A stretch of 64,000 bases of DNA from the NCBI GenBank assembly GCA_027451365.1, contig DAIDJN010000082.1, forward strand, positions 1 through 64,000, given 5' to 3'. Made by a program: the position numbers and the translations under genes. The stretch's first letter is position 1, and every line of letters begins with the position of its first letter. Positions 53,096 through 64,000 of this stretch are shown here, one piece after another. The notes under the pieces are model-generated. The model was not told the DNA's origin. It saw only the letters and a program-made list of their open reading frames with translations, and did no database searches. The DNA comes from Phycisphaerales bacterium. Its GTDB lineage: Bacteria; Planctomycetota; Phycisphaerae; WQYP01.

Positions 53096-53137
53096 TGCGC
53101 CCGACAGGGATCGAACCTGTGACCTGCGGTTTAGGAA
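53096..53137 (-). mobile_element. Attachment site: duplicated 3' half of tRNA-Arg(CCT)
   Basis: TTCCTAAACCGCAGGTCACAGGTTCGATCCCTGTCGGGCGCA = anticodon loop, T-arm and acceptor 3' strand; D-arm and 5' half absent. Confidence 0.85.
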
Positions 53138-53265
53138 CGCAGTTTCTTCGTGCTGCTGAAAAGCTCATAAATCCCAGCAATTCCCTTATTTTACTGCGTA
53201 AAATTCCTTTTGCAAGACTTCGCCAAGCATTATGATTTTCGATGCCTTAAGGCGGTATTTTCATG

Positions 53266-53287
53266 CCAAAACGGTACCAAAACGGTA
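53266..53287. repeat. Tandem 11-bp direct repeat, candidate integrase arm-type sites
   Basis: CCAAAACGGTA x2, about 130 bp inside the att core. Confidence 0.55.
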
Positions 53288-53806
53288 GACGTGGATCCTT
53301 GACGCACAACGAAGGTTGATCTCAGAATTTCAGGATTTTCATTGTGATGGCATTTGTGTAGAATTACATAAGGGATCCGGCATGTCATGGTAACGGATGC
53401 GAACTACTCTATGATCCCATGGCCCGCTCACTAATCATTGCAATCACAATTCTGCCACTTTCCCGTAAGCAAGCAAAATATCGGCTCTGGTAGTTCATGC
53501 TATCACGGTGAAATATCAACATAATCCACACTACGACTTTGGTTGTGGAGAAAGGAGGTGCCCCTTTTGTGCTGATGGTGGGTTCATACCTTGCGTGCAA
53601 TCTTCGACCTTCGTGATGTCCGTAACGCTAATGTCGAGTGGCGTGCATGTCTGTTGGCTGGACTGCAACAGTCGGGCACAGCCGAGCATAATAAAGTTCC
53701 GATCACTCGATCCGCCCGGTCCAGCGTAGTGCCAAATATTCGTTGTTTGCGATCTGCCATAAGTTTAATCTCTCTTTCCATTGGATGGATTAATACGCCA
53801 TGAATA

Positions 53807-54094
53807 TCAGAGCTTCGCCCCAACTTCATTGGACACTTTAACTTCGCCAACTCTTGGTCCTTTTCGCCGGACACTATTCACTTGCCTGCTTTTGAACACC
53901 TGAAACTCCCGATCCGAATCCATAAATCTTCGGGCCATCTCACGCACCAAGTCCGCATCGGCAACCTCGGCATTGTAAGCCTGATTGTAGAACTGCCGGT
54001 AGAGTTGTAAATCCAACCCCATACGGTAATCAATTTTAACATTACACGAAGTCGTCGCCGTGTGATGAAATGCCGGTAATGATATGTCGGTCAT
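53807..54094 (-). CDS. DUF2274 family protein
   Basis: DL.LY...Y...Y, LVREMARRFMDSDREF; typical position after trbI. Confidence 0.7.
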   Translation of the reverse strand: MTDISLPAFHHTATTSCNVKIDYRMGLDLQLYRQFYNQAYNAEVADADLVREMARRFMDSDREFQVFKSRQVNSVRRKGPRVGEVKVSNEVGAKL

Positions 54095-54185
54095 AATTTG
54101 TTCTCCTTTTACTTGTGTTTGTAATGCCTTTTCTGTCTGATGCGGCGTTCGCTTCCGCCGGATATTTCAACATTTCGTAGCGGCC

Positions 54186-55736
54186 TCAAGGCCGGTACGG
54201 TTTTAATATCATGTCCTCGTTGACCAGAACCCGAAACGGCCAGCCGGGCCGAATTGTAATCGTTGGCTGCACGTTGAGTTGTCGGTCAATAATCTTCTGG
54301 CCGATCTGGGAACCTTCCTGGGCAATCGTATTGCCCACCACATCCTGATTGGTGGAGGTGCTGTTGGGATTAATGGCCAGATTGCCGCCGTAGGCGATAG
54401 CCGTACTCAAGGCCGCAGCCTGGGCGAGTTTGGCAAAGTGGTAATTTACCCGGTCATGCAGGCCCGATTGACCTTCCTGGTTGGTACCCGGCATGGCATC
54501 AAGCACAATCGAATCGCCATTGGGCAGTATCAACCTCTGCCAAGCCACCAATACTCGGTTTTCACCATTGCCAACCACACTGCTGTAGCGGCCTAATAGC
54601 CGCGATCCCTGTGGTATGAGCAGATATTTTCCGGTAACGGAATCAAAGACGTTTTGCGTCACCGTGCCGATGATCTGGCCTGGCAGATCACTGTTTATAC
54701 CTGTGACCAGAGCACCGGGGATCACGGTGCCGGCCTGAATTTCATAAGGGGATGCCGGCGGCATCAACGGTTGAGCCAGATAGGATTGAACCGCAGCGGA
54801 TGATTTCATAAAGGTCCGATGCTCCTGTTGAATTGCAGTACCTTGGTCGCCGGAGCCGATTCCCTGTCGCGAATTTCCATACGGACTTTGAAATCCCGGT
54901 GGAATGACACCGCCAGAAGTGAGCAAGCCATTACCTGCTTCCGGCGAAGACACATTCGCCGTCGACGGCGTTGCCGTGCCGCCAGTGTTATACGCATTGT
55001 CCGCCATACCGGCAAAAACCACCGGGGCATTCATCGCCTGACGCCACTGGCGTTGCAAGGATTTTAATTCACGCAGTCGCTGCCGATCCGGTGCGGTGGT
55101 CGATTTGGATTGGGACACGGCAGACCGGGATGAGTTCATGGCTGGTGTTGCTGAATGGCTTGGAACCGTAGTGGCGGCATGGTTATCCGCTTGAGGCCAT
55201 GTGTATGTCTTCGGTAACGTGCTCACAAGAGCGTTGTTGTCGGCCATCTCGCTGGACGGCTGCATAACACTATTGGATGATGGCCGTCTTTGTACCTGCG
55301 GAACCGATGGCGCGCCGCCCAGACCAATGACCAGGGCCGTGCCCACCGCGCCTGCGGCGGCCAGCAGTATGAGCATGACCGCCCTGGGTTTTAACCGCGT
55401 CACCCTGGGTTGCGGCGTGTGCATACGCACCACTGTCTGGCCATCTTGTTTCTCCTCCGGCAGATGATAAGGGTCTGGCACCTGATCCGGAGAATTCCCG
55501 GTGGAACCATACGCGCGATCATTGGTTTGCCGTTGAGTTTGCTGCGGAGATTGAGCTTCGGCCGTCGGATGCACCTTGGAGACGAGCGGTGGTGCCGCTG
55601 TGGCGGACTGCGCATCCAAAGGCAATGCAGAAGTACCTGTATCCGTGTCACCCAGGCTGGGTTCCGGTGTCACGTTCTCGGCAACGGTTTGCGGTTCAAT
55701 GATTTCGTTTGTGTCTTTATTGGTTATTTCATCCAT
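54186..55736 (-). CDS. trbI: Conjugal transfer protein TrbI (VirB10)
   Basis: SPYEIQAGTVIPGALVTGINSDLPG, LLIPQGSRL, WQRLILPNG, PTITIRPG. Confidence 0.93.
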   Translation of the reverse strand: MDEITNKDTNEIIEPQTVAENVTPEPSLGDTDTGTSALPLDAQSATAAPPLVSKVHPTAEAQSPQQTQRQTNDRAYGSTGNSPDQVPDPYHLPEEKQDGQTVVRMHTPQPRVTRLKPRAVMLILLAAAGAVGTALVIGLGGAPSVPQVQRRPSSNSVMQPSSEMADNNALVSTLPKTYTWPQADNHAATTVPSHSATPAMNSSRSAVSQSKSTTAPDRQRLRELKSLQRQWRQAMNAPVVFAGMADNAYNTGGTATPSTANVSSPEAGNGLLTSGGVIPPGFQSPYGNSRQGIGSGDQGTAIQQEHRTFMKSSAAVQSYLAQPLMPPASPYEIQAGTVIPGALVTGINSDLPGQIIGTVTQNVFDSVTGKYLLIPQGSRLLGRYSSVVGNGENRVLVAWQRLILPNGDSIVLDAMPGTNQEGQSGLHDRVNYHFAKLAQAAALSTAIAYGGNLAINPNSTSTNQDVVGNTIAQEGSQIGQKIIDRQLNVQPTITIRPGWPFRVLVNEDMILKPYRP

Positions 55737-63292: not shown

Positions 63293-63303
63293 AAATCATC
63301 CAT

Positions 63304-63363
63304 AGTGTTAAGTTTTCAGTTTTCAGCCACAAATCGGGAACTGAAAACTGAACACTTCACACT
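63304..63363. repeat. Heptamer-repeat palindrome between trbD and trbE
   Basis: (AGTKTTM)x3 arm and inverted GAAAACT/GAACACT/TCACACT arm. Confidence 0.75.
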
Positions 63364-63375
63364 GAAACCTTTTCA

Positions 63376-63648
63376 TTACGTATCCAGAAATACCGGCTGC
63401 TTAATATGCGCCCGGAAAATCTCAAACCAGTCCGGGTCCAGCCGGGTCAGCACGACGGCGGCGGTATGCAATACCAGTCCCAATGGGAATCCCAGCCACC
63501 AGACGTGCAGTCCCAGCCCGAGCACCAAGGCGGTGGTGCCGTTGAGAATGCCAAAGGCGCGTGGCACACCACCCAAAAGTACGCCCTGGGTCAGTGATAA
63601 GTGCAGCGGCACTTCCAGACCTTCGATTTTGTCAGCAAAACTGCTCAT
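63376..63648 (-). CDS. trbD: Conjugal transfer protein TrbD (VirB3)
   Basis: VPLH.SLT..VLLGGVPR...ILNGT, DP.WFE.F. Confidence 0.9.
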   Translation of the reverse strand: MSSFADKIEGLEVPLHLSLTQGVLLGGVPRAFGILNGTTALVLGLGLHVWWLGFPLGLVLHTAAVVLTRLDPDWFEIFRAHIKQPVFLDT

Positions 63649-63989
63649 CAGAAGCCCGCTCCGCCATCAAAGCCAAAGAAGCTCACGCCGAAACTGGTAG
63701 CCGTAACGGCAATCGACACGCCCAGCAGCACGCCGAGTATCTTTCTCATTCCCGCCCCTTCCGAAAAGGCAAAGCCAAAACCCAGCAGCACAATGGAAAG
63801 AATGCACAGGGCCTTGGCCACCGGGCCGGTGAAGCTCGCCAGTACTCTGGCCAGCGGCGTCTCCCACGGGAGCGGCGCGCCGCCACTGCCGCCGAAAGTG
63901 GAAGCCTCTGAGAGGCTTGAATAGCCCAGCAGGACCGCCGAGGCCATCAAGGCGGAAAGACGATTGGACAACCAACGGGAAATTTTCAT
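63648..63989 (-). CDS. trbC: Pilin TrbC (VirB2)
   Basis: LPWE.PL..VL.S.TGPVA, two hydrophobic helices, SFFGF.GGA. Confidence 0.9.
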   Translation of the reverse strand: MKISRWLSNRLSALMASAVLLGYSSLSEASTFGGSGGAPLPWETPLARVLASFTGPVAKALCILSIVLLGFGFAFSEGAGMRKILGVLLGVSIAVTATSFGVSFFGFDGGAGF

Positions 63990-64000
63990 GGGGATACTCC

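Follow-up and report, generated by a model that had tools for sequence, protein, structure and literature searches.

A secondary SecA_DEAD locus related to type I secretion systems (T1SS) is described in passages of Kamneva, Poudel, and Ward 2015 (PMC4452313), where its role is called 'completely unknown'. Relevant passages of Batot et al. 2017 (PMC5435912; PDB entry 5E3E) treat the CdiA-CT/CdiI pair of Yersinia kristensenii, those of Ogier et al. 2016 (PMC5131962) a cdi locus situated inside an integrative and conjugative element (ICE) of Xenorhabdus doucetiae, and those of a preprint (bioRxiv 10.64898/2026.03.19.712371) the LEPRxLL giant proteins of a green sulfur bacterial symbiont. Here we analyzed a stretch of 64,000 nucleotides from a Phycisphaerales bacterium (the window; positions 1-64000 of contig C82 in genome G000, an assembly of 4.06 Mb in 88 contigs), which from position 53096 onward holds one end of a mobile element. 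On balance, we favor the reading that this is a likely conjugative ICE, 60 kb or more in length with tRNA-Arg(CCT) as its insertion site, whose SecA_DEAD/M50/adaptor/TolC set would export a giant Rhs toxin. The export module and the swappable giant predicted toxin are its most notable feature, and both lie outside the window.

Look-ups for such a module on an ICE, or for this element, found none. A literature search on ICEs and conjugation, with most subscription journals outside its reach, found no paper describing such systems in Phycisphaerae; Planctomycetes are absent from the main text of PMC3158045, and the consulted portions of PMC3482391 hold no mention of M50 or T1SS and one unrelated mention of SecA. 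For comparison, we used the 44 other genomes of the family (45 with G000; coded G0xx, with genera coded g1, g2, g3, g6, and g16).

Ends of the element

The attR core at 53096-53137 (minus strand) is the displaced 3' half (42 bp) of a tRNA-Arg(CCT), with its anticodon loop at 53131-53137. It is identical in 42 of 42 positions (E 2.6e-17) to C68:52292-52333, part of the intact tRNA-Arg(CCT) at C68:52260-52333, which is the only one of that type among the 45 tRNAs called in the genome. The identity begins at the first base of the anticodon loop TTCCTAA. An earlier reading made from the sequence alone (the sequence-only reading) had described exactly such a tRNA 3' half starting at the loop, with a boundary readable to the base, and had pointed to the right for an intact tRNA-Arg(CCT) and an integrase; the match and its starting point bear out the former, and both of the latter were found on C68. 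The same 42 bp stand at the same place in sister genomes G003 and G053.

The inner arm of attR (53138-53300) is conserved in sister elements. It gave 14 other matches in 11 of the 44 family genomes, 12 of which pass, at the loop, into the 3' half of a tRNA-Arg while two do not, and the tRNA-Arg types at the sister ends comprise four isoacceptors (CCT, TCG-type, TCT, and CCG). Within this arm, the tandem 11-bp repeat CCAAAACGGTA that had been noted some 130 bp inside was located at 53266-53287 (plus strand), 129 bp inside, and is conserved in sister ends. The tandem has one match in the window and none in 100 shuffles, and the 11-mer occurs eight times in the 4.06 Mb, four of these being the two pairs at the element ends, since the motif recurs inverted at the integrase end (C68:52408-52431). 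These repeats are likely to be arm-type sites of the integrase. In six further genomes, an intact tRNA-Arg is followed by an integrase (78-94% identity), and the offsets of the inverted motif are the same there. A CTGCG/CGCAG dyad that had been read around the crossover region is indeed present (53124-53128 and 53138-53142), but with its 9-bp spacer it is not centered on the 7-nt loop, and the sister ends have not preserved it; it was thus rejected as a conserved core site, and the 5-bp dyad carries little weight. Directly before the loop, 11 of the 12 sister ends read AACTGC.

C82 extends past the window to position 94,277, and its far end overlaps the end of C68 by 115 identical bp, the sole such match in the genome. 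In sister G054, one contig spans the join region, carrying an extra 205-aa unit exactly at the join and the overlap sequence twice, 618 bp apart. Because the C68/C82 join sits in a repeat, the core-to-core size of 60,000 bp and the length of the giant gene are minima. GC content is 55.3% both within the element and genome-wide and gives no boundary signal. With an integrase and direct repeats at both ends in the host chromosome, and with a relaxase, coupling protein, VirB4, and mating-pair genes inside those ends, the element is very probably a bona fide ICE.

In G055 (contig C524), a different element occupies tRNA-Arg(CCT); one of its ends holds the 5' 45 bases and the opposite end a complete tRNA, and it carries a 505-aa integrase-like open reading frame (ORF). 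On the host side of attR, the first ORF (52433-52996) has 187 codons, is rich in proline and tyrosine, starts like a lipoprotein as judged by eye, and has no family match.

Transfer and integration genes

The transfer genes in the window all lie on the minus strand. DUF2274 (53807-54094; PF10038, E 2e-7) is followed by trbI, trbG, trbF, and trbL (VirB10, VirB9, VirB8, and VirB6; 54186-58935), two trbJ paralogues (58980-60653; PRK13874, E 4e-23 and 2e-17, under cut-off), trbE (60698-63292), and trbD with the pilin gene trbC (63376-63989), and the element continues beyond the window (63990-64000). The 864-aa TrbE is a VirB4 ATPase with a PRK13873 match over cut-off and both Walker A and Walker B. 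The order DUF2274-trbI-G-F-L-J-J-E-D-C with open frames throughout, as given by the sequence-only reading, is supported by the expected Pfam and NCBIfam matches, and trbJ is doubled also in those sisters whose contigs cover the region.

To the right of the window, C82 holds a variable slot (64232-66576) and then a block of trbB, a CopG-like gene, TraG, and the relaxase (66680-72534), in which trbB (66680-67633), the coupling protein TraG (68456-70387), and an RlxS-like relaxase (70384-72534) had all been predicted. The integrase, likewise predicted, was reached on C68 through the 115-bp overlap: it is a 424-aa tyrosine integrase (C68:52453-53727), and a TraF-type peptidase, an HTH-S24 repressor, and a DUF1580 gene lie beside it (C68:53887-56518). 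It groups with tRNA-targeting relatives, often paired with DUF1580 (28 of 82 loci). What we take to be the motifs of the integrase (catalytic), relaxase, TrbE, and TrbB are all present.

The origin of transfer (oriT) was sought by an RP4-type nick motif, using what we presume to be its consensus. The candidate upstream of the relaxase is not kept in all seven copies compared, and the motif, with 15 occurrences in the element, was rejected as oriT. A non-coding block upstream of the relaxase (C82, about 72640-72720) is conserved in all seven copies compared and is a candidate promoter or oriT. PADLOC gave no match for five unassigned ORFs of the element.

The predicted export module and its giant passenger

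The cargo between the TraF-type gene and SSB consists of SecA_DEAD and an M50 fusion (C68:56575-60713), two adaptors and a TolC-family gene (C68:61008-65258), a giant ORF (from C68:65612 over the join and from the end of C82 down to 79292), a CdiI gene (C82:78892-79281), an insertion sequence (IS; C82:77331-78575), and SapC, which falls with HYExAFE-like, DUF932, and SSB genes in C82:73318-77241. The SecA_DEAD protein has 643 aa. The M50 fusion (731 aa) is of PqqD-like/M50/adaptor composition and carries HESGH and NxxPxxxxDG motifs, and about 245 N-terminal residues of the 485-aa adaptor have no Pfam match at 1e-3. An AlphaFold model of the M50 fusion (pLDDT 83.9) shows an N-terminal domain of three strands and three helices, a helical membrane part, and a C-terminal adaptor. 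We assign an RRE fold to the N-terminal domain because of its topology, a sub-cut-off PqqD match, and PF05402 in 36 of the 120 listed homologues; Foldseek with the full model returned only adaptor proteins among the matches listed. A single-sequence model of the N-terminal domain was poor (pLDDT 57) and was not used.

The giant protein has at least 6,841 aa, starts at a GTG with a ribosome site, and contains PKD, Ig, Calx-beta, DUF6531, RHS repeats, an Rhs core, and PF18431. Its tip matches chain B of PDB 5E3E, an RNase A-type toxin (E 3e-23), and retains all four residues on which the RNase toxin of Yersinia kristensenii depends, and the product of the next gene, CdiI, matches chain A, the immunity protein (E 4e-5). 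The tip is thus, with good probability, an antibacterial toxin, as far as its sequence can tell.

A conserved body with an exchanged C-terminal tip, as expected of polymorphic toxins, is seen when the G000 giant is compared to that of G054 (contig C188), where the scaffold is 90% and 83% identical until just past the Rhs core and is then followed by another tip; identity drops to 0.21 in the last 105 aa, and the next gene is unrelated. On G003:C177, export proteins 84-99% identical to those of G000 accompany a protein of 6,410 aa that is unrelated and has a lipase-type motif close to the end; membrane-protein genes and repeated C-terminal cassettes follow. Other Rhs proteins are carried on G056:C4 (the same end as G003:C35), G053:C57, and G046:C109. 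Altogether, six passengers (G000 and sisters) have six different tips, and the toxin domain with its cognate immunity gene is recognizable in the G000 copy only. Further tip-like cassettes lie downstream at three loci (G003:C177, G003:C35/G056:C4, and G053:C57), none being present in the G000 copy. At G003:C35, G056:C4, G053:C57, and G003:C177, a radical SAM/SPASM gene stands between the tip cassettes and SapC in several cases and a Sel1-repeat gene occurs in three.

What ties these passengers to the module is their position and their leader. They come directly after the TolC gene in five of five cases with the junction seen, and bodies that are otherwise unrelated share mainly the leader, a basic stretch followed by a LEPRxLL-type motif at the N-terminus, which is present in all five passengers with an assembled start. 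The G000 leader reads LEQRIYMS and is under the HMM threshold of LEPR-XLL (NF012209); it aligns with 28 others, including the sister passengers' LEPRLLLS, LEPRIMLS, and LEPRILLS, and the 29 aligned leaders are basic before the motif, with Ser right after it in 26. The strict motif in the first 200 aa is found in only four of 2,732 G000 ORFs, all longer than 1,000 aa, two of them in the two export loci. Across the 45 genomes, 23 have both M50 and LEPR-8K matches, 13 neither, five M50 only, and four LEPR only, counts in which kin are not independent. In genus g6, one of six genomes has M50 or the leader, and that one has both side by side. A complex prediction for the M50 N-terminal domain with the leader scored 0.37, against 0.02 for the best control, with at least 76% of contacts agreeing and a partner pLDDT of at least 47, and lends weak support. 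Export of the giant by the adjacent SecA_DEAD/M50 module is, in sum, the probable route.

Two further leader-tagged proteins of G000, of at least 4,566 aa (C46:1-13701) and of 1,961 aa (C84:108181-114066), have no export locus seen beside them; the one on C84 has its first part in common with the ICE giant. A second, apparently chromosomal SecA/M50/adaptor/TolC locus (G000, C81:16220-29686), 60-73% identical to the ICE copy, includes a leader-tagged protein of 1,098 aa, with CRISPR-Cas-like ORFs (by eye) about 7 kb away.

Sister elements and spread

TrbE matches of 77-96% identity occur in 10 of the 44 other family genomes, several with more than one copy, but of 400 genomes sampled in the phylum, only 4 gave a match (35-43%). 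The genome scan yielded 20 named loci, every one of them titled Planctomycetota. Such transfer systems thus appear to be rare in the phylum, yet one family is rich in them. In G003, which belongs to another genus, the same two ends and the same tRNA are found with different host flanks, and its element shares 86-91% DNA identity over the backbone. Within genus g3, this tRNA locus is occupied by the ICE in G003 and by a remnant in G059, and it also exists without this integrase. Relative to the integrase end, the central block can face either way among the sisters, and one sister element has another integrase-like ORF at tRNA-Lys. The element belongs to a lineage-specific family of likely ICEs.

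A recent import of the type IV secretion system (T4SS) from Proteobacteria was considered and is unsupported, TrbE being about 50% identical to plasmid copies (50% for the top-ranked one). Three TrbE relatives at 53-62% are named Phycisphaerae or Tepidisphaeraceae and, in a FastTree analysis of 28 chosen and mostly unnamed rows, fall on the element's side; we claim no donor.

M50 homologues are present in 28 of the 45 family genomes. Across genomes of three genera, the M50 proteins keep 95-99% identity, as opposed to 74% with the host's own second copy on C81, and both SecA_DEAD and M50 share 99% protein identity with a copy in another genus, which argues for recent movement. In an M50 tree of 25 rows, from which distant paralogues, fragments, and some genomes were left out, the ICE copies of G000, G003:C177, and G054:C188 form one clade with the short-contig G047 copy (100/99), and the clade's neighbor is a g3 copy that appears to be chromosomal. 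Among the divergent copies, those of one host genus form a pair wherever two had been sampled (g1, g2, and g16), and the host's own C81 copy groups with its congener. Judged by these sequences, the simplest reading would be chromosomal capture of the module followed by spread by the ICE. Three sister stretches carry defense genes of restriction and helicase type in the trbB-trbC interval, and in what was fetched of them no export module is seen, which weighs against a fixed tie between element and module; for this reason, we regard the module as cargo rather than core. Sister ICEs on G053:C166, G053:C185, and G046:C146 have 17-20 kb of defense cargo between trbB and trbC, with DrmD-, DruE-, and DpdE-like helicases and type III methyltransferases, and G053 holds several such elements.

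As for the host, EF-Tu clusters at 90% with proteins named Phycisphaerae, in agreement with the planctomycete that had been thought probable. An ordinary cluster of host genes (rplK, nusG, tRNA-Trp, EF-Tu, and tRNA-Thr) occupies 7981-12272 of the window.

Weighing of alternative explanations

Several observations tell against the account given so far, and the alternatives that they could favor differ in weight. That the two contigs, or the junction at 53.1 kb, are chimeric is very hard to credit: the join does cross a tandem repeat, so that all lengths are lower bounds, and flank synteny with the single same-genus genome could not be shown, but the 115-bp overlap has one partner only in the genome, G054 bridges the join on one contig, and G003 independently shows the same two ends and gene order. 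A weightier concern, albeit one we still think unlikely, is that the ICE is real and this copy fixed, i.e., intact in appearance but no longer excising or transferring. The attR of G000 has one extra G before the loop, beside the crossover, relative to most sisters; the IS lies inside the element; and decayed sisters exist, such as G059, which keeps 196 bp of attL and then has other genes. No attP circle was found, metagenome and viral contigs giving zero exact matches and integrase relatives of only 35-53% identity, nor was an empty site with G000's own flanks: in 22 family loci the ARMT1 orthologue has no tRNA closer than 1.5 kb, and the same-genus genome shares no synteny upstream. NCBIfam cut-offs are not reached by the relaxase, TraG, or either TrbJ, and no oriT could be pinned. 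The core frames, however, are all open, the catalytic motifs are present, and the 99% SecA_DEAD/M50 protein identity across genera implies recent movement. Given its intact frames and motifs, and nearly identical copies being present in other genera, we lean toward this copy still being able to transfer.

Whether the giant is a toxin, and whether it leaves by the module, must be weighed separately. It could mainly be an adhesin stabilizing mating pairs or biofilm, its tip being incidental or serving just for addiction, to hold the ICE in the host. Such a role, which we rate as improbable, would suit the long stalk of PKD, Ig, and Calx-beta domains, the leader-bearing passengers without a toxin-like end (e.g., proteins of about 1,100 aa at apparently chromosomal loci), and a 1,741-aa FN3 protein in G056 that uses the same leader. 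The pattern, in contrast, is that of competition toxins, with tips exchanged at the Rhs core, immunity-like genes paired to them, and additional tip cassettes. Five of the six tips match no known toxin family, that of G000 being the only one that does. Less probable still is that the giant leaves by the host type VI secretion system (T6SS), by Sec, or by the ICE's own T4SS, with the SecA/M50 module serving something else. Rhs toxins often use the T6SS. The host has T6SS and two-partner secretion (TPS) genes, with VgrG, VipB, and a TPS-domain protein (2,855-aa frame) at C41:66532-80445, and the substrate of the module is only predicted. The five M50-only and four LEPR-only genomes (one of each explained by a missed motif or a contig end) loosen the link, and so does the finding that a leader ORF lies within about 10 kb in only 2 of 20 further M50 loci fetched, from which it follows that many substrates would be encoded elsewhere. 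The complex score of 0.37, too, falls in a range where predictions are wrong more frequently than right. Of 157 solved pairs, 116 attained the mark, as did 2 of 215 mismatched pairs; at scores no higher than 0.60, only 18 solved pairs attained it, along with both mismatches. Against another route stand the absence of PAAR, VgrG, and TPS domains among the giant's Pfam matches, the five of five TolC junctions, and the leader as the main feature common to unrelated bodies. Export of a toxin by the adjacent module, therefore, is the reading we retain.

Proposed mechanism

In the mechanism that we propose, the anticodon loop would be where the integrase recombines, the 11-bp repeats would serve as its arm sites, DUF1580 would act as excisionase, and the HTH-S24 repressor would control excision and integration. 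After nicking of the excised circle by the relaxase, the DNA would pass through the P-type system. The giant's leader would be bound by the PqqD-like domain in the M50 fusion and may be clipped by the protease, and the short SecA would power passage through the adaptors and TolC in place of an ABC transporter. The RNase A-type tip would then kill neighboring bacteria without the adjacent immunity gene, and contact killing of ICE-free cells would favor carriers.

The broader proposal, for and against which we see equal weight, is that a Phycisphaerae ICE family captured a chromosomal SecA_DEAD/RRE-M50/TolC set as a dedicated, ABC-free route for LEPRxLL-addressed polymorphic toxins of 4,000-7,000 residues. 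If true, the published catalogue of toxin delivery would lack this route, which conjugation would spread between genera, and a module of 'completely unknown' role would gain a substrate with a simple kill/immunity read-out. As one 60-kb unit packs a candidate exporter, a leader-tagged substrate, and a toxin-immunity pair of known chemistry, the role of SecA_DEAD/M50 becomes directly testable. The elements themselves are a possible native gene-transfer tool.

Comparison with known systems

The trb order with DUF2274 had been read as that of Tn4371-type ICEs, and the likeness in transfer-gene order holds: an RlxS-like relaxase, TraG, a CopG-like gene, trbBCDEJLFGI, and DUF2274 stand in the same order, and a TraF-type peptidase is present. 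Membership in the family does not. With the pPNAP01 element copies as queries (tblastn, E 1e-3, against the 60-kb element), 10 of 23 core queries had no match, including RepA and ParA; DUF2274 was missed as well but is found by Pfam. ParB-like, RdfS, and TraR (labels by position and annotation), EexN, DUF2840, DUF2958, and DUF2285 likewise gave no match. The transfer genes are 28-51% identical to those of the pPNAP01 element, whereas the family core averages more than 75%, per passages of Ryan et al. 2009 (PMC2789088), and the family's 8-bp TTTTTCAT attB given there differs from the tRNA anticodon loop and 42-bp repeat used here. This element also has a doubled trbJ and a TraF far from the relaxase. 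Since the target site, RepA, ParA, RdfS, and TraR are not in common, we reject membership, only the transfer genes being related; going by its genes, the element is Tn4371-like in how it would transfer, without belonging to that family.

With the Yersinia kristensenii CdiA-CT, the giant shares an RNase A-type tip, equivalents of His175, Arg186, Thr276, and Tyr278, and a cognate immunity family, per the passages of PMC5435912 concerned; here, in contrast, the tip sits on an Rhs core behind an Ig-rich stalk rather than on a CdiA filament. No TPS domain occurs in the element, and the single TPS match of the genome is the one on C41, so the two-partner arrangement of contact-dependent growth inhibition is not seen. 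The ICE of Xenorhabdus doucetiae resembles this one in having a polymorphic toxin system as cargo but, as far as PMC5131962 describes it in the relevant passages, has two-partner secretion, a remnant pilus locus, and one locus as opposed to a family of swapped giants. The symbiont giants have the same N-terminal motif next to sapC and tolC, along with a recently acquired secA, per passages of the preprint (10.64898/2026.03.19.712371), but are symbiosis proteins, and Rhs and M50 are absent from its main text.

The closest counterpart of the export module is the secondary SecA_DEAD locus of PMC4452313, whose gene set it shares: as the passages concerned describe it, that locus has a short SecA without the wing/scaffold end, an M50-HlyD fusion, further HlyD proteins, an OEP, and no ABC transporter. 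One HlyD protein of that locus bears a GAF domain; in the element, the N-terminal stretch of the 485-aa adaptor has no Pfam match, as noted above. The passages name no substrate, and the word 'mobile' is absent from the main text. In contrast to the locus as described there, the module found here rides an ICE, beside leader-tagged giants with exchanged tips.

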